Program-made: the position numbers and the translations under genes
Notes under the pieces: model-generated
Told to the model about the DNA's origin: nothing
Seen by the model: only the letters and a program-made list of their open reading frames with translations
Databases searched by the model: none
Assembly: GCA_964434255.1 (NCBI GenBank)
Contig: CAYSUL010000001.1
Location: 27,720 to 91,719 of the forward strand
DNA length: 64,000 nucleotides
Source: an uncultured Candidatus Saccharibacteria bacterium
Lineage (GTDB): Bacteria; Patescibacteriota; Minisyncoccia; Phycocordibacterales; Phycocordibacteraceae
Reading direction: 5' to 3'
Part shown: positions 39,256 to 55,765 of the stretch, one piece after another
Layout: every line of letters starts with the position of its first letter
How positions within the stretch are numbered: the first letter of the stretch is position 1

Positions 39256-39274
39256 CCTGGGACGATGCTGGAAC
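39256..39274 (+). repeat. L-type repeat copy A (CCTGGGACGATGCTGGAAC)
   Basis: Member of a 5-copy family. Followed by a 33-nt leader almost identical to the one after copy C. Confidence 0.7.
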
Positions 39275-39322
39275 CCTTATGCAATCTATGTTAGGTTCTG
39301 TCTAGACTGAATGGAGGCGGAT

Positions 39323-39697
39323 ATGAATATCCCAATCGGTACTCGCCTGGGCGTGGCGCCCAGCCTTCTTGCCCAAATCCTTGCCGGCTTTACTGGTAAG
39401 CCCCCGCCGATTCGCACCGGCAGCGTGGTGTACCGGGAAATCGGCGAGCGGAGCAAGCTACCCCTGTACACCCTGGCGTTCGACGATGGTAGCACTGACT
39501 GCTATTTCGAATCTCAGATGATCATTCCCGAGACTTGCGTGTGCGGGACCCAAATGGATGAGGTCTGCTTCATCGACGGAACCGACAACTGTCTCGCCTG
39601 CCACGAGCTACATGTGATGGAACAGACTGGCGCAGGGGTTGTCTTTTCTCCAGCTCATAAACGTCGGGCATTCAATCTCGTCCGCCCCGAAAAGTGA
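39323..39697 (+). CDS. hypothetical zinc-ribbon protein (cargo of module A)
   Basis: GGAGG RBS 5 nt before the ATG. Cysteine pairs C-x-C...C-x2-C suggest a zinc ribbon. Confidence 0.55.
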   Translation: MNIPIGTRLGVAPSLLAQILAGFTGKPPPIRTGSVVYREIGERSKLPLYTLAFDDGSTDCYFESQMIIPETCVCGTQMDEVCFIDGTDNCLACHELHVMEQTGAGVVFSPAHKRRAFNLVRPEK

Positions 39698-39711
39698 GAC
39701 CACCCACAGAG

Positions 39712-39737
39712 CCACCCGACCCTGTCGGGTGGTTTTT
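39712..39737 (+). terminator. terminator ccacccgac-cct-gtcgggtgg-TTTTTGTTTT
   Basis: Perfect 9-bp stem plus a long T-run. Confidence 0.85.
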
Positions 39738-39746
39738 GTTTTACCA

Positions 39747-39771
39747 CTGGCAGACTAGGCCTCGAATCTAC
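39747..39771 (+). repeat. R-type repeat copy 1 (CTGGCAGACTAGGCCTCGAATCTAC)
   Basis: tRNA-3'-end-like. Overlaps the stop codon of the convergent HAD gene. Confidence 0.7.
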
Positions 39772-40460
39772 ATCTCATAAATCACATCCTTCCTCTCCAC
39801 CACGACTGGCCAGCCATGCTTCTTCGCATGCCGATAGAGAAGACGGTTCGGATTGAACGCGACCGGGTTCTCGACCATCGTAAGCATGGAGATATCACTC
39901 TCGGTGTCCCCTACCCCATAGGAATTCTTGAAGGTGAGGTTCTCCTTCTCGACCGCGCGCTTGAGTACCGCACTCTTGTTCATGATGAGATGCTCGTCCG
40001 CTATCTCGCCGGTGAAGCGGTTACTGGCCCCTGTCTCGTAGAACGTGCCATAGGACTTGTGGAACCCGAGCTCGTACGCGAATCCGTCCACGATGAACTT
40101 CGGCGAGTGCGAGATGGCAAGGAGGAAGTATCCCTTCGCCTTCAAATCATCGACGAGATCGCGGGTATAGCGATACGTCCTGTCCTTCTTGGCTTCAATT
40201 ATCTCGCCTGCTACGTCAGCAACATCGCCATACGGCGCCCCCTTCGCATGCTTACCGAACGCCTGCACTACTTTCTTTATAAAAGGCTCGTACTCCCCTT
40301 TTCTGTTCAACCATTCGAGCTGCGAGGTCTCATAGCTCTTCCGGGCGTCTGCCGGGAATATCTCTCGCTTGATCAGCTCCTCGACGAGCTCTATGAGGAG
40401 CGAGGAGCGGAAGAGTGTGCCGTCTATATCGAATACCGCGACGGGCTGCTGCTTTTCCAT
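39768..40460 (-). CDS. HAD-superfamily hydrolase (phosphoserine-phosphatase-like, HAD-IB)
   Basis: DIDGTL motif I. Cap domain. Motifs III/IV GDTESD. Confidence 0.85.
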   Translation of the reverse strand: MEKQQPVAVFDIDGTLFRSSLLIELVEELIKREIFPADARKSYETSQLEWLNRKGEYEPFIKKVVQAFGKHAKGAPYGDVADVAGEIIEAKKDRTYRYTRDLVDDLKAKGYFLLAISHSPKFIVDGFAYELGFHKSYGTFYETGASNRFTGEIADEHLIMNKSAVLKRAVEKENLTFKNSYGVGDTESDISMLTMVENPVAFNPNRLLYRHAKKHGWPVVVERKDVIYEM

Positions 40461-40493
40461 GCCTCCATGGTACCTCTACTGCGGAAAAGGAAA

Positions 40494-40513
40494 AGCGCCT
40501 CCGAAGAGACGCT
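40494..40513 (-). terminator. minus-strand hairpin agcgtctc-ttcg-gaggcgct then TTTTCCTTTTCC
   Basis: Forms with a G-U pair only in the minus-strand transcript. Ends 34 nt upstream of the HAD start. Confidence 0.5.
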
Positions 40514-40765
40514 GTTTCGCACGAAAGGACCGGCCCCAGCCCTTTAGCTTCCACCGAAGTAGCAAATAATGCGCCGGAGCGCTGATATGCCCTTGACCGC
40601 ACTCCTTTAGGCTGCAGGGCGCACCTTTTATCCCGGGGTATGGGAGGTGCAACAATGTAGACACACGGGAGTGTGAACGGCCAACCCCTTGAGCTTTCAC
40701 TGTGTCGGGTTGGTTCAAGGACTGGGACCTGGACCGATGCTACTCCTGACGCGCGCCCGCGTCAA

Positions 40766-41449
40766 TCACTTCGCCTTAGGCCAGACAAGAGCAGCCGGAG
40801 ACCATATCTTCGTCAACGGATGATCCTCGCAAGCGTGCGGGATAGCGTTGCAGACGTAGCGGCCATACAGCACGAGGCCGTTATTCACGTACCGCCAATC
40901 TTTCTTCGGCACTAAAGCCTCGAGCTCCTTCGATATCTTCGTGAGCTCGGTGGAATCGGATAGGTCGAAGCGAATAGCGAAGCGCCGTACGTGCGTATCG
41001 GTCGGTATGCCATCCCAGATGTTATACAGCTCGCCGAGCACCACATGCGCGGTCTTGTACGCGACCCCTGGAAGTTTCGTCAGCTCTGGCTCGGTCTTGG
41101 GCACCTCTCCACCGAATTCATCGAGAAGGAGCCGTGCGGAACTTAAGATGTATTTCGTCTTGCTCTGATGGAACGTGATGCTCGAGGTCTCGCGGGAGAA
41201 TACGCCAGGGTCTGCGTCCGCAAAATCCTGAACGGTTTGGTATTTCTTGAAAAGCGTATCGGTGACTGCGTTCACTTTCTTATCCGTGCACTGCGCAGAA
41301 AGAATGACGGCGACCACCAGCTGGAACGGGGTGGAATAGTTGAGCTCTGTCTTGGGGATGGGATAGGTCTTCTTGAGATACGCGAGTATCTTCCCCATCC
41401 GCTCCTTTCGCTCCTCGAACTTGGGGTCGAGCATCGGAAGTTGGCTCAT
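40766..41449 (-). CDS. nth: endonuclease III
   Basis: HhH-GPD with a C-terminal C-x6-C-x2-C-x5-C Fe-S motif. Confidence 0.9.
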   Translation of the reverse strand: MSQLPMLDPKFEERKERMGKILAYLKKTYPIPKTELNYSTPFQLVVAVILSAQCTDKKVNAVTDTLFKKYQTVQDFADADPGVFSRETSSITFHQSKTKYILSSARLLLDEFGGEVPKTEPELTKLPGVAYKTAHVVLGELYNIWDGIPTDTHVRRFAIRFDLSDSTELTKISKELEALVPKKDWRYVNNGLVLYGRYVCNAIPHACEDHPLTKIWSPAALVWPKAK

Positions 41450-41455
41450 AGGCTT

Positions 41456-41923
41456 CTAAGCGAGCTCACGGAGGTCGGCAAGCACTTCTTCTGCATGTTT
41501 TTCCGGCTTCACTCCCTCATACACCTTCAGTATGGTTCCGTCAGACCCTACAAGGAACGAAGTGCGGAATATTCCATCGTATTCACGGCCCATGAACTTC
41601 TTCCTTCCCCATACGTCGTATGCGTTCACTACTTTCCTGTCCTCGTCCGCAAGCAGCGGGAACATAAGACCATGCTTCTCCACGAACTTCTTGTGGCTCT
41701 TTACGCTATCGGCCGATATACCGAGCACCACTGCCTTGAGCTTCTTGAAATCAGGTTCCGCGTCGCGTATGGCGCACGCCTGCTTGGTACAGCCTGGCGT
41801 ATCGTCCTTCGGATAGAAATAGATGAGAACGGGCTTGCCGCGATAGCTTGAGAGCGTGTGCGGGGTGCCATCCTGGTCGAGAAGCGTAAAGTCCGGAGCC
41901 TGCGCTCCTACTTTCGGCATCAT
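41456..41923 (-). CDS. bcp: thiol peroxidase / peroxiredoxin Bcp
   Basis: FTPGCT peroxidatic cysteine motif. Start taken at MMPKVG. Confidence 0.85.
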   Translation of the reverse strand: MMPKVGAQAPDFTLLDQDGTPHTLSSYRGKPVLIYFYPKDDTPGCTKQACAIRDAEPDFKKLKAVVLGISADSVKSHKKFVEKHGLMFPLLADEDRKVVNAYDVWGRKKFMGREYDGIFRTSFLVGSDGTILKVYEGVKPEKHAEEVLADLRELA

Positions 41924-43068
41924 AGCTCCACCTCGTCGCTGCGGGAGAACGCGAAGCCGTACGCGATAGCGACTATCGCGCCGATAGCGGCAGCGGAGAG
42001 CACGAGTACGAACACCTTGCCCACGACCGGAATGATACCGACGAGATACAACACGAACATGCCGAGTACGGCGCCACGCCACGAGACGCCCTGTCGCTTG
42101 AAGAGGCCGCGCATGAGCGCTGCACCGGCGAGTATGCCTGCGTACAGATACCCAACGAGAAGAAGCGAGAGGTATGCGAGCAGGAGCAGGAGCGCGACCA
42201 CCGTTCCCACGAACGAGATGAGGAGCAGGATGATGAGCGCGGGAGTTGCGACCGTGACCGCGAACCCAAGAAGGGCGAACAGTACGAAATGCCTTGGGGA
42301 ACGTGCGAGCACGCGCTCGGTCACCCGGCTCGTGAAGCGCGGGAAGAGACCGGCAAGGAGGCCGGCGGCGATAACTGCAGCGATTACGCTCGCGACGAAG
42401 AAGACGCCCGCGCCTGCGATAGCGAACCGCTTCGCTTCTTCGACCGTCGGGAGGTATGCGGAAGCACCGGTGTACACCACTCCCCCATCGACCGCGGTCG
42501 ACGCAGGGACTCCTGCCTGCTGCGGTGCATTGTATTTAAGTACACCATGGATGCGCGTGCCCTCTCCGAGCGTAAGGCGTTCCGAGGCGACCACCTCAAC
42601 GTCGCCCAGGTATTCACCCGCCAGATACACGTCACCCCCATAGATGACCACGGGACCGGTAGCGCCATTCTCGAGGCGAACGCTCGCGCCTGCGATGCGT
42701 GTCGAGGAGGCGGTACCAGTGACTACGACAGAGCCTCCTGCAAGCATGAGGTCGCCACCGATAGTGTCCTCGATGATGATGCGTCCACCAGCTGCGCGCA
42801 CATCGCCCGCGACCGGCCGCTTGAGGTCAATCGTTCCCCCTGCAAGCGTCGCGTCGCCCGCGACCGCTGCTGAAAGGGTGAGTGTTCCTCCTGCCGCAAG
42901 AACGTCCCCACCAATCGGTGCGGATACGTTCACGTCGGTACCTGTCAGGTACGCGTTATCCGCTATGGGCTCCGAGATGACTAGTGTACGGTCGGTACGC
43001 ACCGTGGACGCCAGCGTTATGCCCGGAATGACGAGGAGGAGTGCAAGCGCTAGCAGTCGACGCTTCAT
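41920..43068 (-). CDS. bactofilin-like (polymer-forming cytoskeletal) repeat protein with C-terminal multi-TM region
   Basis: Signal peptide. Repeated GGDV/AGG beta-helical motifs. About six C-terminal TM helices. Confidence 0.65.
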   Translation of the reverse strand: MKRRLLALALLLVIPGITLASTVRTDRTLVISEPIADNAYLTGTDVNVSAPIGGDVLAAGGTLTLSAAVAGDATLAGGTIDLKRPVAGDVRAAGGRIIIEDTIGGDLMLAGGSVVVTGTASSTRIAGASVRLENGATGPVVIYGGDVYLAGEYLGDVEVVASERLTLGEGTRIHGVLKYNAPQQAGVPASTAVDGGVVYTGASAYLPTVEEAKRFAIAGAGVFFVASVIAAVIAAGLLAGLFPRFTSRVTERVLARSPRHFVLFALLGFAVTVATPALIILLLISFVGTVVALLLLLAYLSLLLVGYLYAGILAGAALMRGLFKRQGVSWRGAVLGMFVLYLVGIIPVVGKVFVLVLSAAAIGAIVAIAYGFAFSRSDEVEL

Positions 43069-43072
43069 AGGT

Positions 43073-43546
43073 TCAGGATACCACAGGGCGTATGGGGGTG
43101 AGTTTTGCACGTCCGGGGGCGTGCCTTGCCCACAACCTAAGAGCAATAAGGCATATAAGGGCCGCTATGACCGCCGACGCGATGCAGTAGATGCACAACG
43201 CCTTGATGAGGGCGAACTGGATGAAGAGGAATGCTAAGGATGCAATGAGGCCGAGCACGCCGAGTACCGCGACCGCCTGGTAGAGCGGGTGGTGGGTGCG
43301 GACGAAGAGGATCGCGACAAGGACAAAAAGGAAGCAATAGAAGATGACGCCGTAGAGCGCGAGCGGCAGCCCGAAGAGCTTCGAGTAAGGACTCTGCGCA
43401 ACGATATTGCAGCCATCGAGCACCGCACCCACGTCGCAGAAGAGCGCAGCTCCCTGGAATGCAGAAAGAGTGAGGTACCACGCATCTGCTATGCCGAGGA
43501 ATGCGAGGACGAGCAATGTCACGAGTAGCCCGTTACGGGTGTTCAT
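43073..43546 (-). CDS. vitamin K epoxide reductase (VKOR) family protein
   Basis: Polytopic. CxxC CIYC in a TM helix plus loop cysteines. Confidence 0.8.
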   Translation of the reverse strand: MNTRNGLLVTLLVLAFLGIADAWYLTLSAFQGAALFCDVGAVLDGCNIVAQSPYSKLFGLPLALYGVIFYCFLFVLVAILFVRTHHPLYQAVAVLGVLGLIASLAFLFIQFALIKALCIYCIASAVIAALICLIALRLWARHAPGRAKLTPIRPVVS

Positions 43547-43598
43547 CAAGCTATCGTAGCCTGCGGACGTATGAGCGGCAAATGGGTATACTTGTGCC

Positions 43599-43994
43599 AT
43601 GGAACCGATGCCGCAGACGGATGAGGAGTGGCGCGAGAAGCTCTCGCCCGAAGAATACCGAGTGCTCCGGGAGCGCGAGACGGAGGCTCCTTTCTCGGGC
43701 GCGTACGTAGAGAATCATGAGGAGGGCGTATACCGCTGCAAAGCGTGCGGGAACCTCCTATTCACCTCTGACCAGAAGTTCGACTCGGGCACCGGCTGGC
43801 CATCGTTCACCGATCCTGCGGTGGCGGAGAACGTGGGCACGCGTCCCGACGACACATACGGCATGCACCGCACCGAGGTGTACTGCAAGAAATGCGACGG
43901 CCATCTGGGTCACGTATTCAATGACGGCCCAGCTGAAGCAGGCGGCAAGCGGTATTGCATCAATTCCGTCTGCCTAGCCTTCGAGAAGGAATAA
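43599..43994 (+). CDS. msrB: peptide-methionine (R)-S-oxide reductase MsrB
   Basis: SelR domain. Two CxxC zinc pairs. Catalytic RYCINS. Confidence 0.9.
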   Translation: MEPMPQTDEEWREKLSPEEYRVLRERETEAPFSGAYVENHEEGVYRCKACGNLLFTSDQKFDSGTGWPSFTDPAVAENVGTRPDDTYGMHRTEVYCKKCDGHLGHVFNDGPAEAGGKRYCINSVCLAFEKE

Positions 43995-44000
43995 CGAGTG

Positions 44001-44033
44001 AGGCACCATCCGTATCTGGTACGAATGGTGCCT
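44001..44033. terminator. hairpin aggcaccat...atggtgcct between convergent msrB and gcrA
   Basis: Perfect 9-bp stem. No T-run. Confidence 0.4.
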
Positions 44034-44039
44034 GAATCA

Positions 44040-44546
44040 CTAGATATATCGCTGGAGTGAACGGGCGAGCTCGTTCGTGCGAGTTCGCCTCTTGGTCTGC
44101 GCCGGTTGATACGCCACGCGAGCGTGCTCCAGGCAGTACGGCCCATCGTCCTGCCGCCTTCCGCAGAAAGTGAAGCCGTCGGTGAATGGGTCGCCGATAG
44201 GCCATTTGCACATGTGAGCGTCGAGCGTGAGGATGGTCGCCGTGCCCGGAGCTTCCTCGACATACTGCACCGGCGCCGGGATGGGCGCGGTGGCGACAAT
44301 CGGAGCAGGCTCAGCGACACGCCGACGTGCGACAGACGCTGCAGCCGGACGGGGCGAACGCGGTGCCTTGAACACGGGCCGGGCCGGTTTCGATGGCGTC
44401 GCACGACCCGAAAGCCCGAGCCGGTGGACTTTGCCGATGACAGCGTTGCGCGTCACGCCGCCCAACTGTTTAGCTATCTGGTCTCCAGAGAGACCGTCCT
44501 GCCAGAGCTTCTTGAGACTCTCTACGCGTTCGTCGGTCCAACCCAT
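44040..44546 (-). CDS. gcrA: GcrA-family cell-cycle transcriptional regulator
   Basis: N-terminus MGWTDERVESLKKLWQDGLSGDQIAKQLGGVTRNAVIGKVHRLGLSGR matches the GcrA DNA-binding domain almost residue for residue. C-terminal CKWPIGDP...FTFCG motif. Confidence 0.8.
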   Translation of the reverse strand: MGWTDERVESLKKLWQDGLSGDQIAKQLGGVTRNAVIGKVHRLGLSGRATPSKPARPVFKAPRSPRPAAASVARRRVAEPAPIVATAPIPAPVQYVEEAPGTATILTLDAHMCKWPIGDPFTDGFTFCGRRQDDGPYCLEHARVAYQPAQTKRRTRTNELARSLQRYI

Positions 44547-44673
44547 GATCTTCCCTTTCCCGCCGCTGGCGGTTCCGTGAGGAATGAATGTCTAGAAACT
44601 GCTTTCTCTTCCCTTCCGGAGCGGATTATATGACGCCTCGACAAATCGCTATCAACAGGAGCTAATGATGAGC

Positions 44674-45633
44674 TTAGGTGCAGCCCATCGTTGTCGCTCC
44701 GTCCTTCCTCATCCCTACGTTAGTTTCCGCATATCGTACATAGGTCTCGCCTTCCGCTTTCGTGAATATTGCGGTGACCGCGAGCCCGCAACGCACGCTC
44801 GGTTCCCAATACTGATCGAATACGAAATTGCCGAGGGAGTAATACACGCGGGTGCTGCCGATATCCTCCACCTCCCCCACAACATGCGAGTGCGTGCCGA
44901 TGATGAGGTCCGCTCCTGCGTTCGCGAATGCTCGTGCGAGCTCGCGTACTCGTACGGGTGGAGCGGTCTCATACTCATTTCCCCAATGCGCAAGCACGAT
45001 TACAGCGTCCGCACTCTGCACCGCGTCGCTTTCAAGCGCCTGGCGGGCACGCGCAGAATCCCCGCCCACGAAGTCGCTATACGAAACGAACGCGAGGCGC
45101 ACACCGTTCACCTCTTGTACTACCGGCTCGATAGAGTCTCCGGTCGGGTCGCCGATATACTCGATGCCTGCACCAGACAGGTATTTGGTGGTCGAGCGCA
45201 CGCCATCGGCTCCGAAGTCCTTGATATGGTTGTTGCCTATCGAGACGAGGTCGAAGCCGTAATCGAGCAGGAGCTTCCGTACGCTCGAGGCGAACGTGAA
45301 GCGCATGTTGGTAAGCTCTCCGATCTGGGTACCCTGCGACTGCGATAGGTTATCCGTTATCGGGCCTTCCAGGTTCCCGACGTTCATATCGGCTTCCGAC
45401 AGAAGCCGCTCGACGCCGCCGAGCACATGAGCATTCCCATTCCGCGCGAGCACGGTACGGATATACCGGTCGAACATCATATCGCCCACGAACAGGACCG
45501 TCGCGGTCTTTATCTCCTCTTTCTTCTGGAAGATCCTGGCTTGGCTAGTCTCTACCGTCTGTGAGCTGAGCATGAAAAGCGTGAGGCTGAACGCCCCAGC
45601 GAATATGAGGAGTATGGTTCCGACCCTCTTCAT
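44674..45633 (-). CDS. capA: CapA-family metallophosphatase (poly-gamma-glutamate synthesis-type)
   Basis: N-terminal TM. Calcineurin-like phosphoesterase motifs (GDMMFDR, GNNH). Confidence 0.75.
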   Translation of the reverse strand: MKRVGTILLIFAGAFSLTLFMLSSQTVETSQARIFQKKEEIKTATVLFVGDMMFDRYIRTVLARNGNAHVLGGVERLLSEADMNVGNLEGPITDNLSQSQGTQIGELTNMRFTFASSVRKLLLDYGFDLVSIGNNHIKDFGADGVRSTTKYLSGAGIEYIGDPTGDSIEPVVQEVNGVRLAFVSYSDFVGGDSARARQALESDAVQSADAVIVLAHWGNEYETAPPVRVRELARAFANAGADLIIGTHSHVVGEVEDIGSTRVYYSLGNFVFDQYWEPSVRCGLAVTAIFTKAEGETYVRYAETNVGMRKDGATTMGCT

Positions 45634-45655
45634 ACACTGATGATACAGTAGGCGG

Positions 45656-46195
45656 ATGAAGGAGGTAGCGATGTTCGGTGGAGGATGCTTCTGGTGTACG
45701 GAAGCGGTATTCAAGATGATGAAAGGAGTGACTGCGGTCGCGCCGGGCTACGCAGGCGGGCACACGAAGAACCCGACCTATGAACAGGTATCGACTGGAG
45801 AGACCGGCCATGCCGAGGTCATCCGTATAGAATACGACCCCGCGGTGGTAGCGTATCGCACGCTCCTCACCATATTCTTCGCTTCGCATGATGCGACGCA
45901 GTTGAATCAGCAGGGCAATGATATAGGCACCCAGTACCGCTCTGCGGTGTTCCCTACGACGCCTAAGCAAAACATTGAGACCGAAGCGTTCATTCGCGAG
46001 CTCGAAGCCTCGAGCACGGACGGCGACCCGATAGTAACCACCATAGAAGAGAACGCGGTCTTCTATCCTGCCGAGGAGTACCACAGGGACTATTTCGAGA
46101 ACCATCCCGAGCAGGCGTACTGCCAGATAGTGATAGCGCCGAAGCTCCAGAAGGTGCAGAAGGTGTACGCAGAGCTTCTCTCGCAACCTTCCTAG
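45656..46195 (+). CDS. msrA: peptide-methionine (S)-S-oxide reductase MsrA
   Basis: GGGCFWC active site. Confidence 0.9.
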   Translation: MKEVAMFGGGCFWCTEAVFKMMKGVTAVAPGYAGGHTKNPTYEQVSTGETGHAEVIRIEYDPAVVAYRTLLTIFFASHDATQLNQQGNDIGTQYRSAVFPTTPKQNIETEAFIRELEASSTDGDPIVTTIEENAVFYPAEEYHRDYFENHPEQAYCQIVIAPKLQKVQKVYAELLSQPS

Positions 46196-46574: not shown

Positions 46575-46640
46575 GCCAATTCCTCGGGATTGGCTTTCGT
46601 ATTTCCATAAGAAGAAAGCCGCTCCAGGGAGCGGCTTTCT
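46575..46640 (+). terminator. two tandem hairpins (gccaattcc-tcg-gggattggc; agaaagccgctcc-aggga-gcggctttct)
   Basis: The second is a perfect 13-bp stem followed by TCTTG. Confidence 0.55.
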
Positions 46641-46785
46641 TCTTGCATCAGACGAATTGTTTACGGCTTAGTTGTAAAAATGCTACATCACAAGTGATGG
46701 AGGTAAGCCGTAAACAGCTCGTCTCATACGCACGATTACATAAAAGATATCATATATCCTTTTGCAAGTCAACAGCCCCCCGGTA

Positions 46786-46805: not shown

Positions 46806-47005
46806 CTTGATTTGTCTTAGAATCTCTATACTCTAACCTCGGGTGTTCGGGCAACACAATTGGCTAGCCCAAACGTGGCCATTAGTTCCTGCGCAGGCAG
46901 GAGCTGGTCTCAGAAGTAGCGATTAGCTACCACAAGGTGACGAACTCAATACCTGAGAAACGCTGACAGAGATCATTCCTCGACTTTTGGTGCTCGAACA
47001 CTTCC

Positions 47006-47032
47006 AGACCACTTCATGTGGTCTTTCTTTTT
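47006..47032 (+). terminator. terminator agaccac-ttcat-gtggtct-TTCTTTTTG
   Basis: Perfect 7-bp stem plus a T-run, 13 nt before repeat L-B. Confidence 0.8.
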
Positions 47033-47044
47033 GCGTACTAAAGT

Positions 47045-47073
47045 CTGCTGGGGGTCTGGGACGATGTTGGAAC
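47045..47073 (+). repeat. L-type repeat copy B (CTGCTGGGGGTCTGGGACGATGTTGGAAC)
   Basis: Core sits inside a GGGGTC...GACCCC hairpin (47051-47090). Confidence 0.7.
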
Positions 47074-47102
47074 TTCACTAATACGACCCCATGACCCGAT
47101 AG

Positions 47103-47130
47103 TTGATAAATATAGACATTTGTGTTATAA
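47103..47130 (+). promoter_or_regulatory. AT-rich promoter TTGATA-N16-TTATAA for the module B gene
   Basis: -35 at 47103-47108, -10 at 47125-47130. AGGAG RBS at 47152-47156, 7 nt before the ATG. Confidence 0.45.
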
Positions 47131-47163
47131 AGACAAAAGTGATGCATCGCTAGGAGACGTCTA

Positions 47164-47571
47164 ATGGAAGAGGTTCCCTCTCGCTCTTTTCTGGTCTTCA
47201 GGACCTTTCCTGACACCTGGGAATTGCCGGGTGAATACAGCAATGTACTTGAGAAGCATCTTTGTTCTATCCCAACGGAACTAATACTTCCGTGGCCGGT
47301 CAACATTTGCCCCAGAAATATTGGGGATGAGATCTGCTTCTCGAGCATGTTGACCCCGTATGCCGACTTCGTGGTGGAGAAGTTTGAGTACATCTACAGT
47401 CGCAAGAAAGGGGTTACTCAGTGGGTTCGTTTAAGACCTACTGAGGACGGCATGGACTTTAACCTCAACACGCTGCTTCACGCAGCCGATGAGGGGTTCC
47501 TGTTCGAATCTGAAGTCCCAATTTCACGAGTGTTGTACGACGCCGGCCTTCGACACACGGCCGTCGGATGA
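47164..47571 (+). CDS. hypothetical protein (cargo of module B), ~50% GC
   Basis: 135 aa. Strong RBS. Lower GC than host genes. No recognisable domain. Confidence 0.55.
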   Translation: MEEVPSRSFLVFRTFPDTWELPGEYSNVLEKHLCSIPTELILPWPVNICPRNIGDEICFSSMLTPYADFVVEKFEYIYSRKKGVTQWVRLRPTEDGMDFNLNTLLHAADEGFLFESEVPISRVLYDAGLRHTAVG

Positions 47572-47616
47572 CATTGCAGCAGCCCTCACACTTCGATGAT
47601 GTGGGGGCTTTAATAT

Positions 47617-47642
47617 TGCTGGCAGACTAGGGATCGAACCTA
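47617..47642 (+). repeat. R-type repeat copy 2 (TGCTGGCAGACTAGGGATCGAACCTA)
   Basis: tRNA-3'-end-like. Its CTA is the stop codon of the convergent metallopeptidase gene. Confidence 0.7.
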
Positions 47643-48043
47643 TTTGTCCCCTCCTCCTCCCGACCCTGCACATGCGGCTCATCCATGCCGAAATAGTGGC
47701 CGAGCTCATGCCAGATAGTTTCGCGTATCACGATGCGTATCGCATCCCGGAATTCCCTATCCATCTCTTCTGCCTCTTCGATGATAGGTAGCCGATAGAG
47801 CGTGATGGTGTCCGGCATGGTGCCACCAATGCCATACTCGCTGCCGCGCTCCGAGAGCGGAACGCCATGATACAGACCGAGCAGGGTCTCTTCGTGTTCG
47901 AGCCCCTCTTCCTTCCTAACTTCTTCGCTCAGCTCGTCCTCGATCAGAAGCGCGACGTTCTTCACCGACCGCTCGAATCGCTCCGGCACCTTCTTCCACT
48001 CCTCTGCGGCTATCGCCTCGAATTCACGTATATCCATGTCCAT
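47627..48043 (-). CDS. zincin-like metallopeptidase-family protein (DUF1025-like)
   Basis: 138 aa with HExxH motif WHELGHY. Confidence 0.75.
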   Translation of the reverse strand: MDMDIREFEAIAAEEWKKVPERFERSVKNVALLIEDELSEEVRKEEGLEHEETLLGLYHGVPLSERGSEYGIGGTMPDTITLYRLPIIEEAEEMDREFRDAIRIVIRETIWHELGHYFGMDEPHVQGREEEGTNRFDP

Positions 48044-48912: not shown

Positions 48913-48935
48913 ATCTTGGAGTATAGCGTAATAGC

Positions 48936-48962: not shown

Positions 48963-48982
48963 GCGTAGGACAGCTTCGTGGG

Positions 48983-49708: not shown

Positions 49709-49724
49709 TAGCCTTCAGTATAGC

Positions 49725-49756
49725 AAAAACCCCAGGCTGCATAGCCTGGGGTTTTT
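49725..49756. terminator. bidirectional terminator aaaaaccccaggct-gcat-agcctggggttttt
   Basis: Perfect 14-bp stem. Confidence 0.85.
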
Positions 49757-49775
49757 GAGCACTTAGAGGGACCGA

Positions 49776-51185
49776 TTACGAGATGAACGTAAGCGCCTTC
49801 CCGCCCATGCCAGCACGACCGGTACGGCCGATACGGTGGGTGTAATCCTCGTAGGTGCCCGGCAAGTCGAAGTTGATGACGTGCGTCACTCCCGAGATGT
49901 CGAGACCACGAGCCGCGACGTCGGTTGCCACGAGCACGCGCACATGCGACTGCTTGAAGAGCCCAAGGGCCTTCTGGCGCGCGGAGTGCGTCTTGTTGCC
50001 GTGGATGGAGTCGGCTTTTATGCCGGCCTGGCGAAGATCCTTCGCGAGGCGCTCCACGCCGTGCTTGGTGCGTCCGAAGACAAGCACGCGCTCCATGTCA
50101 GGAGCCTGGAGAAGCTCGATGAGCTTCGTAAGCTTCTGGGCAGGAGGAACGCGCACGACGTCCTGGTCGATAGTGTGCGAGGTCTCGCGGGTCTTCACCG
50201 AAATGCGGACCGGGTCCTTGAGGAATTCGCCGATGAGGCGCTCGATATCCTTCGACAGCGTTGCCGAGAAGAAGAGCGTGTGACGGACGTTCCGCATGAA
50301 TCCCATAATGAAACGCATGTCGTTGATGAATCCCATGTCGAGCATGCGATCGGCCTCATCGAGGACGACGGTACCGAAGTCGGAGAGGTCGAGCTCCCTG
50401 CGCTCCATGATGTCCTTGAGGCGTCCCGGCGTGCCGATGACGAAGGATGGGTTGCGACGGAGTACGCGTATCTGCGGAGAGATGTTGGCACCTCCCACAA
50501 TCGTCACCGAGTTTAGCTGGAGGCCCTTGGCGAAGCCGAAGAACTCCTGCTCGATCTGGATAGCGAGCTCGCGCGTCGGTACCATGATGAGCACGCGCTC
50601 ATTCTGGCCGAGTGCACGGAACTTGAGCACCTTATCGATGAGCGGAATGAGGAATGCCGCTGTCTTACCAGTACCCGTGTTCGCAAGACCGACCACATCG
50701 AGTCCCTTGAGGACGTGCGGTATGGACTCGTCCTGGATAGGGGTCGGGGTGACATATCCCTTGGCCGCGATGTTCGCCTTGAGGCGCTCATCGATAGCGA
50801 AGCCTGCGAATGCGTGCTCGGGTACGTACGCCTCTACCTCTTCAGGAGCTGAAGCCTTATTAATAAGCTTATTCAGGTCGACGTTCATCTCCTGGAATCC
50901 CCGCTTACCGCCGGAGCGGTTCGAGGAACCGCCGCCACGAGGGCCACGGTCGAACGAAGGGCGAGATGAGGACGAGGGGCCACGAGAGCCGCCACCGCCA
51001 CGAGGCGGTCCGAAACTACGCTGAGGGCGACGCGGGGCGCCGTTCGCAAGAGCGAACTGCATGCCCGCTTCGTACGCGTTGCTTGCGCCACCACGGCTTG
51101 AACCGCTGCGGCTAGGACGAGGGCCTGAGCCACCCGACCGATTGCCTCCACGCTTATCGCGCGAAGAGAAATTACTATTTTGCAT
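49776..51185 (-). CDS. DEAD-box ATP-dependent RNA helicase with ~100-aa RG/RGG-rich N-terminal tail
   Basis: Q motif, GTGKT, DEAD, SAT and HRIGRTGR motifs. Confidence 0.9.
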   Translation of the reverse strand: MQNSNFSSRDKRGGNRSGGSGPRPSRSGSSRGGASNAYEAGMQFALANGAPRRPQRSFGPPRGGGGSRGPSSSSRPSFDRGPRGGGSSNRSGGKRGFQEMNVDLNKLINKASAPEEVEAYVPEHAFAGFAIDERLKANIAAKGYVTPTPIQDESIPHVLKGLDVVGLANTGTGKTAAFLIPLIDKVLKFRALGQNERVLIMVPTRELAIQIEQEFFGFAKGLQLNSVTIVGGANISPQIRVLRRNPSFVIGTPGRLKDIMERRELDLSDFGTVVLDEADRMLDMGFINDMRFIMGFMRNVRHTLFFSATLSKDIERLIGEFLKDPVRISVKTRETSHTIDQDVVRVPPAQKLTKLIELLQAPDMERVLVFGRTKHGVERLAKDLRQAGIKADSIHGNKTHSARQKALGLFKQSHVRVLVATDVAARGLDISGVTHVINFDLPGTYEDYTHRIGRTGRAGMGGKALTFIS

Positions 51186-51424
51186 GTATGTATCTGTTTG
51201 AACGAGAGCGCTGGCGCTCTTCGTGTTGAGTAATCAACCGTCCTCGAGAGTTTCAAGCCGATGCGCTTTCCGCTTTGGCTGGTCCTGATGAGTTTGCTCT
51301 CAAGACGTCAAACAATATGGAGTAACCGTTGTGGAGGAACTATAGCACTTCCCTCCTTATTTTGCAAGGCGTGGAGACAAATGACGCCCCGCCCGAAAGC
51401 AGGGCGAGGCGTCGAATCAGGTAC

Positions 51425-51970
51425 CTAAGCGACCTCAAACACGGGCCAGTTGTGCCCGCTTATCCCGTATCCCGCCCACGAGCACTCGAGCGTACGCCGG
51501 ATCCCGTTATATGCGATACGGAAATTGCGACGTTCGCTCTCATGGTCGTATACGATCGGGACGAAGAGGCTGAATCCGGATTCGCTATGGAGCTTGAACC
51601 GGTCTATGGGAAGATTAGGATGCGCTGCCGAGATGCCGAGGCATGTGTGAACGCACGCAGGCACCAATCCCTCCTTCTGGCCCCATGCGAGAGGATCATC
51701 GAGATACGTGTGGCTGCCGAGTCCATAGTTGAGCAAGACAAGCGGTCGTCCTGCCTTCCTATCCTGGCAGCACGCCCCGGCTCCCTCCCACGTGCGGGAA
51801 CGGCACGAGGCTTCGGTGCTAGGCGCTCCAAGCGAGACGAGCTCGTCGAAAGCATCCCATTCGGGCATTTCCGGGCACAGCATCACGAGGATGCGGCCGG
51901 AAGCTGGTGCAGTTACCTGGCTTTTCGCTCTGCGGAGCAGTTGCTCAGGCGTTAGCGGAACGTCCGTCAT
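51425..51970 (-). CDS. hypothetical protein
   Basis: 181 aa. AGGAG RBS upstream. Cys-rich. No family recognised. Confidence 0.55.
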   Translation of the reverse strand: MTDVPLTPEQLLRRAKSQVTAPASGRILVMLCPEMPEWDAFDELVSLGAPSTEASCRSRTWEGAGACCQDRKAGRPLVLLNYGLGSHTYLDDPLAWGQKEGLVPACVHTCLGISAAHPNLPIDRFKLHSESGFSLFVPIVYDHESERRNFRIAYNGIRRTLECSWAGYGISGHNWPVFEVA

Positions 51971-52161
51971 TACATGCTCCTACATGAGGGTGAACGTGTC
52001 GAAGAGCGCAGCTCTATGCCATAGAACTCCTCCTTCTGGCCGGATGTTACCACCCTCACCTAAAAACAACGAGACACCGCTATGGCGGTGTCTGTTCGTA
52101 TCTACTTATGCAAGTCTATGTCAGCTGTAGTTTCGCCCGCGTGCGGGCCCGCACCAATTCC

Positions 52162-52314
52162 CTAGGCGATAGGGTTCCGTCCCTGGATGAGGCGGACGAG
52201 AACCATGATGACCGCGACGACGAGAAGCAGGTGGATGAATCCGCCAAGCGTGTAGCTCGTCACGAGACCGAGAAGCCAGAGCACGAGAAGTATCACTGCG
52301 ATGGTATAGAACAT
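52162..52314 (-). CDS. lmo0937-family small membrane protein (50 aa)
   Basis: MFYTIAVILLVLWLLGLVTSYTLGGFIHLLLVVAVIMVLVRLIQGRNPIA. A palindrome gtgcgggcccgcac lies just 3' of the gene. Not in the ORF track (below 60 aa). Confidence 0.6.
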   Translation of the reverse strand: MFYTIAVILLVLWLLGLVTSYTLGGFIHLLLVVAVIMVLVRLIQGRNPIA

Positions 52315-52409
52315 GGAATTTCGTTAGTGACTGGTAATCCTCATACCGTATGAAAAACAACCTAGAGAAATGATGAAGGGCGCTTCCCGGAGGAAACGCC
52401 CCTATCGAC

Positions 52410-52778
52410 CTACTGGCCGACTGCGACTGTATCGGCGAAAAGAAGACCATGGATGACCGGATGACTCATCGGATCCGCCCGGGTCTCGGCGACCAGCTTG
52501 GGACCGTAGGCTTTCCTAACTCGAGCGCGTTGCTCGACCGTGAGAGTAACGGGCCAGGTCGGGATCGATACGCCACGCCCATCGGGCGCGAGCAGATTCT
52601 GGACGAAGAGCCGGCTCATCATATTGGCACTGCTGGCGCGGATAGGGGGCGACGGCTTCCCGTCCGCGCACGTGAAGTACATAGACTTGACCCTCACCTG
52701 CTGTTCTTTGAGCGGCGGCTGCATGCGCCACTGATGCATGATGGCCTCGATGCAGTTCTCGAACGACTGCGTTCCCAT
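52410..52778 (-). CDS. hypothetical protein
   Basis: 122 aa. AAGGGA RBS about 8 nt upstream. Confidence 0.45.
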   Translation of the reverse strand: MGTQSFENCIEAIMHQWRMQPPLKEQQVRVKSMYFTCADGKPSPPIRASSANMMSRLFVQNLLAPDGRGVSIPTWPVTLTVEQRARVRKAYGPKLVAETRADPMSHPVIHGLLFADTVAVGQ

Positions 52779-52860
52779 GACTGTATTCCCTTCTGTGCCC
52801 GTACGTGGCTGTGAAATCTGGACGTACCCTACCAGAAACCGCTACCCGCCACAATGAGAA

Positions 52861-52880
52861 AGGCCGGGAGGTCCCGGCCT
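52861..52880. terminator. typA terminator aggccggg-aggt-cccggcct
   Basis: Perfect 8-bp stem 6 nt after the typA stop. T-rich flank on the minus strand. Confidence 0.65.
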
Positions 52881-52885
52881 TTGCT

Positions 52886-54670
52886 CTAGCGGCGATTCTT
52901 CGAACGATCGCTCTCGGTGAGCCCCTGCTTACGCAGACGCACCGAAAGTGGCGTTATCTCGAGATACTCGTCATCCGTCATGACCTCAAGACCGCGCTCG
53001 ATGCTGAGAGTGAACGCGGGGACCAGGTTGATGGCTTCATCCATACCGGACGAACGGACGTTGCTCTGGTTCTTTCCCTTGGTAGGGTTCACGACCATCT
53101 CTTCTCCCTTCGAAGTGTTGCCCACCACCATACCTTCATAGACTTCGGTAGCCGGGGTGATATAGAGGACGCCGCGCTCCTGCATGCCCCAAAGCGCATA
53201 GCCGAGCGCCTTGCCGGTTGCCATGGAAATCATGGAGCCCACCTGGCGCTTCTTTATCTCGCCTGCGTACGGCTTGAAGCCGAGCACGCGCGTTGAAAGT
53301 ATTCCCTCGCCCTTGGTGTCGACGACGAACTGGTTGCGATACCCAAGAAGGCCGCGGGTAGGACCTTCGAGTGTGAGGCGCACCGTGTCGCCGTGCTGCA
53401 CAAGGTTCATGAGCACGAATGCGCGAGTACCGAGGCGCTCGATGATGGAGCCCTGGAACTCGGTCGGAGTATCGATAGTGACTTCCTCGTATGGCTCGAG
53501 CTTCTGGCCCTCTTCCTCGCGGATGATTACCTGCGGCTGGGAGACCTGCATCTCGTATCCTGCGCGGCGCATGTTCTCGAGGAGGATGGCGATGTGGAGC
53601 TCGCCGCGGCCCGAGACCTTGAAGGCGTCAGGGGACACGAAGTCCACCTTGAGTCCCACGTTCACTTCGAGCTCGCGCTCGAGGTATTCGCGAAGCTGGC
53701 GGCTCGTCACGTACTTCCCTTCGCGGCCCGCGAACGGTGAATTATTCACGAGGAAGTTCACGGTGATGGTCGGCTCATCAATAGCGATTGCTGGCATCGG
53801 CTCCATAGCAGGGTCGGTAGTGATGGTCTCTCCGATGAATACGTCAGGAAGACCTGCGACGATCACGATGTCGCCTGCGGACGCTTCCGTAGCTTCAACG
53901 CGCTCAAGACCCTTGAAGGTGAATATCTTCGTCGTCTTTCCGTTACGCGCAGTGCCGTCAGGCTTCTTCACGATGACGTTCTGTCCCGGAGTGATGGTTC
54001 CTTCGTACACGCGGCAGATGGCGAGGCGGCCGAGGAAGTTATCGTACGCGAGATTGAATGACTGGAGCTTGAGGGGCTTGGCCTCGTCTCCTGCTGCTGA
54101 AGCTGCAGGCACGTTCTCAAGAACGGTATCGAGAAGCGGCTCGAGGTTCACGCGCTCGTCGTCGAGCTTCTTCATAGCAACGCCCTCGCGACCGATGGCA
54201 TATACCACTTTGAAGTCGGACTGCTCATCGCTTGCTCCGAGCTCGAGGAAGAGTTCGAGCACCTGCTCTTCAGCACGATCGGGATCTGCTGCTGGCTTGT
54301 CTATCTTATTCAGAACGACGATAGGCTTGAGCCCGAGCTCGAGTGACTTCTTGAGTACGAAACGGGTCTGCGGCATGGGGCCTTCCTGCGCGTCGACGAT
54401 GAGGAGCACGGAGTCGATGGAACGGAGCACACGCTCAACTTCCGAACCGAAGTCGGAGTGGCCTGGGGTGTCGACGATGTTTATCTTCGTTCCCTTGTAC
54501 TCCACCGAGGCGTTCTTGGAGTAGATGGTGATGCCGCGCTCGTGCTCGAGTGCGTTACTGTCCATGGACACGCCAGCAGCTGCCGCGCCGGTTTCCTTGA
54601 GGATGGCGTCGGTCAGCGTGGTCTTTCCGTGGTCCACGTGGGCGATGATGGCGATATTCCGGGTTTCCAT
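52886..54670 (-). CDS. typA: translational GTPase TypA/BipA
   Basis: AIIAHVDHGKTTL, DTPGH, NKID G-motifs. 594 aa. Confidence 0.95.
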   Translation of the reverse strand: METRNIAIIAHVDHGKTTLTDAILKETGAAAAGVSMDSNALEHERGITIYSKNASVEYKGTKINIVDTPGHSDFGSEVERVLRSIDSVLLIVDAQEGPMPQTRFVLKKSLELGLKPIVVLNKIDKPAADPDRAEEQVLELFLELGASDEQSDFKVVYAIGREGVAMKKLDDERVNLEPLLDTVLENVPAASAAGDEAKPLKLQSFNLAYDNFLGRLAICRVYEGTITPGQNVIVKKPDGTARNGKTTKIFTFKGLERVEATEASAGDIVIVAGLPDVFIGETITTDPAMEPMPAIAIDEPTITVNFLVNNSPFAGREGKYVTSRQLREYLERELEVNVGLKVDFVSPDAFKVSGRGELHIAILLENMRRAGYEMQVSQPQVIIREEEGQKLEPYEEVTIDTPTEFQGSIIERLGTRAFVLMNLVQHGDTVRLTLEGPTRGLLGYRNQFVVDTKGEGILSTRVLGFKPYAGEIKKRQVGSMISMATGKALGYALWGMQERGVLYITPATEVYEGMVVGNTSKGEEMVVNPTKGKNQSNVRSSGMDEAINLVPAFTLSIERGLEVMTDDEYLEITPLSVRLRKQGLTESDRSKNRR

Positions 54671-54774
54671 ATGACGAATCTGGCTTGCGAATAAAATAAA
54701 AAGGCCCCACGGGCAATTGAAAATAGAATACCTTTATATAGATGAAGCGTCAATCATCCTCAGGCGACGAATCC

Positions 54775-54806
54775 CTGCTGCTGAGAGTCCGGGACGATGT
54801 TGGAAC
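54775..54806 (+). repeat. L-type repeat copy C (CTGCTGCTGAGAGTCCGGGACGATGTTGGAAC)
   Basis: Followed by a leader CTCTTATGCAATGCATGGTAGGTTCTGTCTAGAC, near-identical to the one after copy A. Confidence 0.7.
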
Positions 54807-54857
54807 TCTTATGCAATGCATGGTAGGTTCTGTCTAGACACATTCAGGAGAACGTTA

Positions 54858-55151
54858 ATGCCCTCAGGAAACCGAAAGCAGTGGTTGCTCGGGAGTGCTA
54901 CTCCCACATTCCCTGCACGCTTCTGCTCCACCTCTGAAGGAAGGCGGATGTTCCCGGACATTCTCCAAGATGCCTTCGGGCTCAAGAGCATCACAGGCTT
55001 TCATCGCTACGGACGAACGCTCGGTGCGATTATCCCCATCGAGGCCGTTCGGCTTCTCGCCGGCTATCCGGATGCGGTGGACGACGATACGAAGGTCCGC
55101 ATTCGGAACGCAGCCCTGAACCTCCTCGAGGGACAAGGTGATCTACGTTGA
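54858..55151 (+). CDS. hypothetical protein, possible Phd/YefM-like antitoxin fold (cargo of module C)
   Basis: AGGAGA RBS 6 nt upstream. KSITGFHRYGRTLGAIIPIEAVRLL resembles the antitoxin beta-strand region. No toxin partner seen. Confidence 0.45.
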   Translation: MPSGNRKQWLLGSATPTFPARFCSTSEGRRMFPDILQDAFGLKSITGFHRYGRTLGAIIPIEAVRLLAGYPDAVDDDTKVRIRNAALNLLEGQGDLR

Positions 55152-55191
55152 TGGAAGAACCTCACACTCCGCGCCCTGAAAGCGCGGAGTT

Positions 55192-55221
55192 CTTGCTGAG
55201 GGTCTGGGACGATGTTGGAAC
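55192..55221 (+). repeat. L-type repeat copy D (CTTGCTGAGGGTCTGGGACGATGTTGGAAC)
   Basis: Starts 41 nt after the module C gene. Boundary of the AT-rich islet. Confidence 0.7.
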
Positions 55222-55223
55222 TC

Positions 55224-55706
55224 TTACACTCCGATTTGAGGAACCGCGCCCGCCATATACAGAAACATATAAATCAGGAGGACAATGAAAAAACCGATGG
55301 CAAGAAGTTTTCTATTCATTTCTTTACTTTGTACAAACCAGATATGCTTCCAAAATTTATCGTTAGCCCTTTTTGAGAGAAGAACTATCAATCCAAGCAC
55401 AATGGACAGAAACGCAACTACCGGAAGTATGGCTACCAATGCAAGACCCAAAAAACTCAGTGGAGGATAGTTACTTACAATCAGACCTGCACTCAAGAAC
55501 ATTACTCCAAGCAGAAGAGACCGTGCAGGATTTAGATAGCGATAATACCAATAATCTTTCCCGAAACTATCGTCACCTGATTCTCCCTCTTTAGCCGTTA
55601 AATCTGATGTCCACTCCTTATAGAATTTTCTTGAGAAAAACATTGCAAAGCCATAATAGATAGCAGCCACGCCAGTTGCAATTAAGAAGAGTGGAAACCA
55701 GGTCAT
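55224..55706 (-). CDS. hypothetical polytopic membrane protein in ~40% GC islet
   Basis: 160 aa, about four TM helices. The last 8 codons read into the sequence just after repeat L-D. Confidence 0.5.
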   Translation of the reverse strand: MTWFPLFLIATGVAAIYYGFAMFFSRKFYKEWTSDLTAKEGESGDDSFGKDYWYYRYLNPARSLLLGVMFLSAGLIVSNYPPLSFLGLALVAILPVVAFLSIVLGLIVLLSKRANDKFWKHIWFVQSKEMNRKLLAIGFFIVLLIYMFLYMAGAVPQIGV

Positions 55707-55739
55707 ATAAGAAGTATATCGCCTGCAGGATGAGTCCGT

Positions 55740-55765
55740 CCTGGGAGACTAGGTATCGAACCTAC
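55740..55765 (+). repeat. R-type repeat copy 3 (CCTGGGAGACTAGGTATCGAACCTAC)
   Basis: tRNA-3'-end-like hairpin taggt-atcga-accta. Its CTA is the stop codon of mltG. Confidence 0.7.

Follow-up and report, generated by a model that had tools for sequence, protein, structure and literature searches.

Polar arrays of small gene cassettes at tRNA-Gln-derived sites in Patescibacteria: a probable integron-like system with a fixed duplex recombination site

Introduction

The described systems closest to the one considered here are the sedentary chromosomal integrons (IntI, attI, attC), the integrase-less elements known as IMEX, and the genomic islands that target tRNA genes. The attC site of integrons is an imperfect palindrome (R''-L''...L'-R') that folds as single-stranded DNA and is variable in sequence but conserved in structure. 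IMEX, such as the CTX and TLC arrays in Vibrio, use the host Xer machinery at dif, a 28-bp site built of two 11-bp arms and a 6-bp centre and present in one functional copy per replicon. In Prochlorococcus, tycheposons are tRNA-targeting islands with their own integrase, separated by partial tRNA copies (10.1101/2020.12.28.424599). Here we analyse a 64-kb stretch of DNA (hereafter the window; contig CAYSUL010000001.1, positions 27,720 to 91,719) from an uncultured Candidatus Saccharibacteria bacterium, in which three arrays of direct repeats of two types, L and R, enclose small genes. The window has ~58% G+C and contains housekeeping genes, seven tRNAs and one RNase P RNA.

We interpret these loci, with a probability of roughly 0.8, as arrays of mobile gene cassettes kept by site-specific recombination, in which L is the cassette-borne site and R the chromosomal landing site. 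The Patescibacteria, or Candidate Phyla Radiation (CPR), make up a large share of bacterial diversity, have genomes of ~1 Mb with few recognised mobile elements, and their way of gaining accessory genes is an open question. Repeat copies in the window are numbered L1-L5 and R1-R3; loci and contigs from other assemblies bear three-digit numbers (such as L031).

Results

Two related repeat families in the window

A search of the window for the L core GGGACGATGTTGGAAC with up to two mismatches returned five matches (39259, 46790, 47058, 54791 and 55206), where 0.04 were expected, and the R motif gave three (39748, 47620 and 55742; expected 0). All eight lie on the plus strand. The five L and three R copies listed in a preliminary description of this DNA, made from the letters alone, are thereby confirmed as far above chance. 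Position weight matrices (PWMs) derived from 287 L and 53 R sites, used together with a mismatch-tolerant search, revealed no further L or R copy on either strand of the 64-kb window. Both families were also recovered by a repeat search of the window, which extended R to CTGGSAGACTAGGnnTCGAAyCTA and showed that L1 and L4 have a longer stretch, of 49 nt, in common.

Each L consists of a shared core, (T)TGCTGG, followed by a conserved arm of ~22 nt, GTCTGGGACGATGTTGGAAC, and the core alone is common to L and R. The arms of the two types are set apart by a 5-nt insertion, slightly shorter than the indel of about 6 nt first reported. The prefix that had been assigned to every L copy, CTGCTG, occurs in L3-L5 but not in L1 and L2, which are the first sites of their arrays and have a degenerate core. 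The core itself differs from that of integrons, GTTRRRY.

A precise empty site places the crossover in the shared core

Looking up the cargo-2 and zincin proteins of array 2 in public assemblies led to contigs from the Hainich groundwater site, most of them colinear with the window. In two of these, L239 and L241, which stem from different samples and independent assemblies, the stretch 47052-47616 is precisely absent and 571 bp are deleted. The empty site reads ...GTACTAAAGTC-TGCTGG-CAGACTAGGGATCGAACCTA..., in which a single core joins the left flank of L3 to the right half of R2; in its short form the junction is GTACTAAAGTC-TGCTGG-CAGACTAGGG. Since L3 and R2 are identical at this junction over those 6 nt only, the empty site reflects neither the collapse of a repeat by the assembler nor homologous recombination of the RecA type. 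A search for empty sites had been proposed in the preliminary description, and cassette 2 provides a precise one in both contigs.

The same junction bears on the possibility that no dedicated recombinase is involved and that natural transformation, followed by homologous or short-homology exchange, moves the cassettes, anchored by the conserved L sites of 30-38 nt. Genes for competence and type IV pili are present in CPR bacteria, the L sites are near-identical between distant genomes, and the lack of a linked recombinase in our searches would also suit such exchange. Yet the observed excision joined L to R over just 6 identical bases. Strict polarity, a single terminal R and an R that mimics a tRNA are not expected from simple homology either, and selection for homology alone leaves the fixed sequence of the arm unaccounted for. 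We consider this route unlikely to explain the arrays.

Cassettes were also found in different surroundings. In L008 and L010, cassette 2 is present at 100% identity from TGCTGG to GAACCTA and adjoins a different gene, with a product ending in ...HHS, which comparison with L095 and L099 identifies as ychF; in L009, the neighbour upstream of L3 differs from that in the window. Four pairs among 236 cassettes are common to different species, at 79-88% identity, and in all four the homology ends at TTGCTGG on both sides. One of them is followed by another L in L047 and by R and ychF in L095. Taken together, the empty site and the ends of homology at the cores indicate that what moves is the L arm together with the cargo and one copy of the core, and that crossover takes place in the core common to L and R. 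The module first described, a gene bracketed by L and R, is thus refined: R is the landing site and not the end of a cassette.

Across 24 complete arrays, the L at the distal end, which comes first, scored lower than the others (median 41.8 vs 49.5, p = 5e-4), having lost chiefly its core half, as expected of a junction that no longer recombines; L1 and L2 match this pattern. Array 2 is the only one in the window with a perfect TGCTGG on its proximal pair (L3 and R2), and also the only polymorphic one. For arrays 1 and 3, where the cores are variants (CACTGG, TGCTGA, TCCTGG), no polymorphism was seen in the available contigs. Perfect cores thus go with polymorphism, a suggestive association in three arrays.

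L-L-...-L-R arrays in other Patescibacteria

Scanning one genome per species with an L 19-mer yielded at least 118 stretches, compared with ~9 expected by chance, and among the matches listed nearly all belong to metagenome-assembled genomes of Patescibacteria/CPR. These 118 genome loci and 120 metagenome loci formed a set of 238. By PWM, the genome loci hold 297 L and 54 R sites, two or more in 80 loci. All sites of a genome locus lie on one strand in the order L-L-...-L-R; 49 terminal junctions from L to R were counted, and nowhere does an L follow an R within 1 kb. The metagenome loci hold 247 L and 30 R sites with 27 L-to-R junctions and one exception to the order, an L less than 1 kb after R; arrays there have up to ten L sites. 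The median cassette length is 549 nt (5-95% range 288-1103; extremes 169 and 1864). The L arm is exact in hundreds of sites from many Patescibacteria lineages, and conservation is one-sided at the core.

Such arrays occur throughout Patescibacteria, so the motif is not confined to the window, as the search in relatives suggested at the outset was meant to establish. The proposal of site-specific, trans-mobilised cassettes is supported both by these arrays and by the empty site with its junction in the core. Judging from these matches, the putative cassette system is widespread in the ultra-small Patescibacteria.

Two further groups of matches were set aside. Those of the L 19-mer in many Rhodobacterales genomes are single and core-only (PWM ~33), lie in a conserved region, lack R and form no arrays, and look unrelated; single matches of this type are L014, L017, L035, L041, L042, L054, L066, L070, L079, L082, L085, L086, L090 and others. 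A phage or plasmid parent element was rejected as well: matches to an L 16-mer in viral contigs are single, core-only, about as frequent as expected by chance and not in arrays, and what R matches there is either a complete tRNA-Gln gene or an att fragment of a prophage whose host is unrelated.

R corresponds to the 3′ end of tRNA-Gln

R1-R3 are orphan copies of 24-29 nt with reverse complements that comprise the T-arm, the 3′ strand of the acceptor and the discriminator base (nt ~49-73 of tRNA-Gln, by alignment to real genes). The resemblance to a tRNA 3′ half pointed out earlier therefore proved exact. They are not overlooked whole tRNAs, as ARAGORN and Rfam find none and nt ~49-73 alone are present. 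In other loci, R-type sites often run on as ...CCTAGATTCACGGCTTCAAAGGCCGCTGTCCTAC, the reverse complement of tRNA-Gln(UUG), and ARAGORN places a tRNA-Gln gene over 16 of the 54 R sites of the genome loci. In L064 (7040-7200) and L016 (6280-6600) the intact tRNA-Gln gene is accompanied in tandem by a partial copy spanning D-loop to 3′ end, with a 27-nt spacer (..AGCGAGTGAGTGAAATGTGCTG) conserved between these two different genomes. Such partial duplications may have been left by a different integration event, or may show how orphan R copies arise.

Orphan R copies are tightly associated with the ends of protein genes. For 20 of 38, a convergent open reading frame (ORF) of 80 codons or more has its stop codon -1 to +2 nt after TCGAAC, and when any convergent ORF within 300 nt is counted (n=27) the stop is TAG in 22. 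In the window, R abuts or overlaps the stop codon of a convergent gene at all three arrays, just as previously noted (Table 1). Here, R2 supplies the last four codons (R-F-D-P) and the stop of the zincin-like gene (47627-47642), so that the landing site contributes coding sequence to a housekeeping gene. Host genes include mltG (window, L023 and L102), ychF (L095, L099, L101 and L008/L010), an M23 peptidase gene (five loci), alaS and a gene for an HI0933-like flavoprotein (two loci each), and lexA and udg (once each). The recurrence of the same host genes across species implies that the landing pads are old and vertically inherited, while the adjoining arrays are variable. That R is fused so tightly to stop codons is probably the outcome of deletion pressure that stopped at the functional edge of R, which coincides with the GAAC edge of L.

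The nature of R suggests another explanation, namely that the arrays are a passive graveyard of classical integrative elements that target tRNA-Gln, with successive islands decayed to single genes, L representing the degenerate displaced tRNA end, the arrays immobile and the polymorphism due to ordinary deletion. Tandem accretion at tRNA genes is well known from tycheposon islands, distal sites do decay, no integrase was found, and the partial tRNA-Gln duplications of L016 and L064 would fit. The L arm, however, is not a tRNA copy; drift would not preserve a specific 22-nt sequence exactly in hundreds of sites. Nor do decayed islands resemble these units of 170-1100 nt, which are cleanly bounded by one 6-7 nt core. 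In L239 and L241 the sequence lost runs exactly from core to core, and the same cassettes occur in different arrays. A history of decay without mobility appears quite unlikely to us.

Cargo, gene orientation and expression

Where one strand clearly has the longer ORF, cassette genes lie on the minus strand relative to L in 110 cases and on the plus strand in 56; cassette ORFs with a diverged homologue in another cassette are evenly divided between strands (13 vs 13). Solid Pfam domains were found in nine of ten sampled cassette ORFs, mostly on the minus strand, and the cargo domains include histidine phosphatase (His_Phos_1), serine hydrolase, DAGK, methyltransferase, HD, S66 LD-carboxypeptidase, AAA/STAND and NYN.

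Plus-oriented cassettes often have a conserved leader after L (TTATGCAAT...TAGGTTCTGTCYAGA), and 15 of 16 clear leader cases are plus-oriented. This long-form extension, yTTATGCAAT..TAGGTTCTGTCYAGA, follows L1 and L4 in the window (39275-39307 and 54807-39) and is also seen in L022, L047, L060 and L118; its distal part (TAGGTTC...CTAGAC) resembles an inverted T-arm. Judged by its sequence and placement, the extension is probably a portable promoter or 5′ untranslated region module. Terminator-like hairpins at cassette ends follow the orientation of the gene and are missing from many cassettes. The second cassette of L031 has a good promoter, TTGACA-N17-TATGCT, followed by ~250 nt with neither an ORF nor an Rfam match. 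No guide-like RNA family common to the ORF-less cassettes was found, and none of these gave an Rfam match.

These data were also considered under the assumption that L and R are expression signals and not recombination sites, L acting as promoter or operator and R as part of the convergent gene's terminator or as its 3′ processing signal. Three plus-strand ORFs of the window have an L upstream, terminator-like hairpins precede R, TTGGAA resembles a -35 hexamer, and on the convergent strand R would give the mRNA 3′ end a tRNA-like T-arm. Cassette genes lie on both strands, however, so that L is not their promoter, and most of the clear ones, with Pfam support, are on the strand opposite L. The spacing from L to a -10-like hexamer is not conserved among L1-L5 and a sigma-70 scan gave no excess (9 found vs 9.4 expected), which likewise rules out a main role of L as a sigma-70, extracytoplasmic function (ECF) or sigma-54 promoter. 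A promoter/terminator pair would also leave the precise empty site and the core-bounded homology unexplained. It is thus highly improbable that L and R serve expression alone, though a secondary promoter role of the long-form extension is possible.

Search for the recombinase

We searched 3154 ORFs of at least 100 amino acids (aa) from the 238 loci and the window by phmmer, with the tyrosine recombinases XerD, IntI1, Cre, lambda Int and a CPR Xer as seeds; gamma-delta resolvase and Hin were further seeds for the array flanks. Only one Xer-like gene, in L031, was present in ~1.5 Mb of array flanks, which is no more than expected for housekeeping Xer. This gene lies on the minus strand of its locus (3520-4200), and its TAG stop is fused to the first, distal L. 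A weak resolvase-like match in the flanks turned out to be the YchF GTPase, and the clustered ORFs of the array flanks comprise housekeeping families only. No recombinase was found in the window by the phmmer seeds, applied to all ORFs of at least 100 aa, or by Pfam, applied to 30 of its ORFs; several long window ORFs without a Pfam match were judged on inspection to be antisense artefacts, ATP-grasp-like or membrane protein. The earlier report of no integrase or transposase in the window accordingly stands for these seed and partial Pfam scans, and, apart from the Xer-like gene of L031, the seed search likewise gave no recombinase next to arrays.

Folding of L gave -4.1 (top strand) and -1.0 kcal/mol (bottom strand), compared with -6.8 and -3.9 kcal/mol for shuffled sequences. 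L thus contains no attC-like hairpin and is less stable than its shuffles. Without hairpin potential, L is best seen as a duplex, sequence-specific site, unlike attC.

This result also weakens the idea of a single-stranded DNA route as in IS200/IS605 or IS91, with the units transferred by an HUH-type enzyme; in tRNA orientation they would insert 3′ of CCAGCA(A) and end in the same sequence. Conservation confined, in that orientation, to the 5′ side of the cleavage point, precise and seamless excision, and the lack of target duplications and inverted repeats all agree with such movement. L is nevertheless devoid of hairpin potential, the T-arm hairpin of R is lost in many orphans, and no TnpA- or Rep-like gene was seen, although the seeds used would not detect one. 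Movement of this kind is very unlikely on the present evidence. Elements associated with palindromes and derived from IS200/IS605 were rejected on similar grounds: L has no hairpin, and the hairpins at cassette ends are terminator-like and missing from many cassettes.

Organisation of the three arrays

The features of the arrays are collected in Table 1. The order L, one or two small ORFs, R had been described for every locus; the order holds, and at the second locus one of the two cassettes has no convincing ORF and the other has one. At the third locus the second cargo gene is on the minus strand. No Pfam family was found for any of the cargo proteins of the window.

Table 1. Sites, cargo and flanking genes of the three arrays, in coordinates of the window.
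Feature	Coordinates (nt)	Strand	Remarks
L1	39245..39282	+	only L of array 1; arm GGGACGATGCTGGAAC kept, TGCTGG core degenerate; PWM 31
Long-form extension of L1	to 39307	+	TTATGCAAT..TAGGTTCTGTCTAGAC; follows L1
Cargo 1 ORF	39323..39697	+	124 aa from MNIP; no Pfam family; also 124 aa in contig L243
Intrinsic-terminator-like hairpin	39708-39736		after cargo 1
R1	39742..39770	+	orphan tRNA-Gln 3′ end; core variant CACTGG; ends in CTA, which gives the HAD hydrolase gene its TAG stop
HAD hydrolase gene	39768-40460	-	stop within R1
L2	46776..46813	+	first L of array 2; core and arm degenerate; PWM 22
Cassette A cargo	46806..47034	+	~230 nt, no convincing ORF; structured, RNA-like; terminator-like hairpin at end (47006-47024)
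L3	47044..47081	+	perfect core TGCTGG (47046-47051); arm GGGTCTGGGACGATGTTGGAAC; PWM 48
Cassette 2, mobile unit	47052..47622	+	571 bp including one core copy
Cargo 2 ORF	47164..47571	+	135 aa; no Pfam family; followed by hairpin (~47581-47609)
R2	47614..47642	+	orphan tRNA-Gln 3′ end; perfect core TGCTGG (47617-47622); PWM 47
Zincin-like gene (Zincin_1)	47627-48043	-	stop is the inner CTAG of R2 (47627-47629)
L4	54777..54814	+	first L of array 3; core variant TGCTGA; long-form extension to 54839
Cargo 3a ORF	54858..55151	+	97 aa; no Pfam family; followed by hairpin (~55167-55190)
L5	55192..55229	+	core variant TGCTGA; PWM 47
Cargo 3b ORF	55224..55706	-	160 aa, predicted membrane protein; low G+C; no Pfam family; strand opposite L, co-directional with upstream mltG
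R3	55736..55764	+	orphan tRNA-Gln 3′ end; core variant TCCTGG; ends in CTA, which gives the YceG/MltG gene its TAG stop
YceG/MltG gene	55762-56763	-	stop within R3

The G+C content at 55001-56000, which covers cassette 3b, is 0.48 compared with ~0.58 in the whole window, and this fits a foreign origin of the cargo 3b gene. Cassette A folds with a minimum free energy of -72 kcal/mol (z = -2.8) over 46806-47034; it belongs to no Rfam family and has no relatives among the 24 other ORF-less cassettes, and it may be a cassette-borne small RNA. Further upstream, between the terminator of a small ORF and L2, lies a near-perfect palindrome of 36 nt (46609-46644) that would form a long hairpin. It appears as an inverted match when the DNA is compared with itself by BLAST, and its matches to small-RNA-like Rfam families are weak and below threshold.

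Discussion

The arrays share several features with sedentary chromosomal integrons. Both are polar arrays in which each cassette is small, usually holds a single gene and brings a recombination site of its own, and one distinct chromosomal site is located at the proximal end; excision and insertion are precise at a short core; the cargo is hugely diverse and mostly of unknown function, and most genes are co-oriented with a possible upstream source of transcription. Conservation of the landing site is one-sided, as in attI. At the same time, L is a fixed duplex sequence conserved in sequence and not in structure, without the imperfect palindrome of attC. The landing site derives from tRNA-Gln, being its 3′ end or a copy of that end; there are several per genome, three of them within 17 kb in the window. 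No integrase gene adjoins the arrays in the seed search, and about one third of cassettes are inverted and would be self-expressed. Thus we find a polar array with core-bounded insertion and excision beside a distinct primary site, and neither an adjacent intI nor attC folding.

With tycheposons and related tRNA islands, the arrays have in common that the 3′ part of a tRNA gene is targeted and regenerated after insertion, that newcomers push older units outward, and that populations are heterogeneous in presence and absence (10.1101/2020.12.28.424599). An att site in the 3′ part of an intact tRNA gene was indeed found at the R sites that ARAGORN assigns to tRNA-Gln in the genome loci, the window having orphans only; an integrase of their own and a displaced tRNA copy were not found. 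In contrast to such islands, the units are 0.2-1.9 kb long, have no integrase and are separated by an L arm unrelated to tRNA, and many landing sites are orphan fragments at the stops of protein genes. Like IMEX, the cassettes are integrase-less and tandem; they may depend on a chromosomal recombinase in trans, and a functional site would be regenerated at one end. R and L, as judged by eye, are unlike the 28-bp dif, and three R sites within 17 kb argue against a function as dif in dimer resolution.

The preliminary description had called the system integron- or MITE-like. The integron likeness holds for function only, and the comparison with miniature inverted-repeat transposable elements (MITEs) does not hold, as there are neither terminal inverted repeats nor target duplications. 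Transposons of this or the insertion sequence (IS) type were rejected also because the ends are direct and not inverted, the 3′ end of the cassette is not conserved, and TGCTGG is the core of the site and not a randomly duplicated target.

We therefore return to mobile cassettes as the favoured reading and propose the following mechanism. Each cassette would carry one L, with the core (T)TGCTGG and its cassette-specific ~22-nt arm, the cargo coming after, and R would be either the 3′ end of tRNA-Gln or, as in the window, an old orphan copy welded to a housekeeping stop codon. A circular cassette would recombine with R by crossover inside the core, which would leave L on the distal side and regenerate R beside the tRNA or gene; repeated insertions would build the polar array L-L-...-L-R, and recombination of L with R or with another L would excise a cassette precisely. 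For cassette 2 the predicted circle junction is ...GGGGGCTTTAATAT-TGCTGG-GGGTCTGGGACGATG. Read in the direction of the tRNA, the landing site would be followed by genes that each have their own site behind them, as attI is followed by ORF-attC units. Genes in the majority orientation could be expressed by read-through from the tRNA or the upstream gene, and cassettes in the opposite orientation, such as three of the four ORF cassettes in the window, might rely on their own promoter-like leader and terminator. As a guess, the enzyme may be a tyrosine recombinase that is encoded on the chromosome, unlinked to the arrays, and acts in trans; movement by an HUH-type enzyme or driven by homology is possible.

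Several points weigh against this reading. Apart from the one Xer-like gene of L031, no recombinase was identified near the arrays with the tyrosine and serine seeds, which do not cover DDE, HUH and IS110-type enzymes. One-sided conservation at the core is unusual for the core sites of classical tyrosine or serine recombinases, and a single mode of binding is hard to square with the 5-nt insertion that distinguishes the arms of L and R. The reading also gives no account of how so many different genes came to have an orphan R copy at their stop codon. In this population polymorphism was seen for one cassette only, and no circular junction was observed. Finally, L008-L010 have low coverage and junctions within 27-33 nt repeats, so that chimerism is possible there, while the empty site cannot be chimeric.

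In the full-text literature covered by our search, a scope that leaves out most subscription-journal papers, neither the motif nor such arrays in CPR bacteria are described, and there is a substantial chance that the enzyme and the logic of its sites are new. By a slight balance of probability, we regard the arrays as a second, independently evolved integron-like capture platform in Patescibacteria. It would pair a cassette-borne 30-nt duplex site with a sequence that mimics the acceptor and T-arm of tRNA-Gln, and would rely on several conserved pads per genome at housekeeping stops (mltG, ychF, alaS, M23 peptidase and others) and an unlinked recombinase, possibly of a new type. This would suggest that integron-style capture has arisen more than once from different molecular parts. 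The implied recombinase, recognising a short fixed site of 30 nt, could be a useful tool, and the L and R motifs allow the cassettes of CPR bacteria to be sequenced in a targeted way, much as attC primers do for integrons. For the bacteria themselves, the cassette system would offer a modular, phylum-wide pool of single-gene cassettes with searchable sites, and, if the platform is what we take it to be, it would be the main route for the acquisition and shuffling of accessory genes in these tiny genomes.

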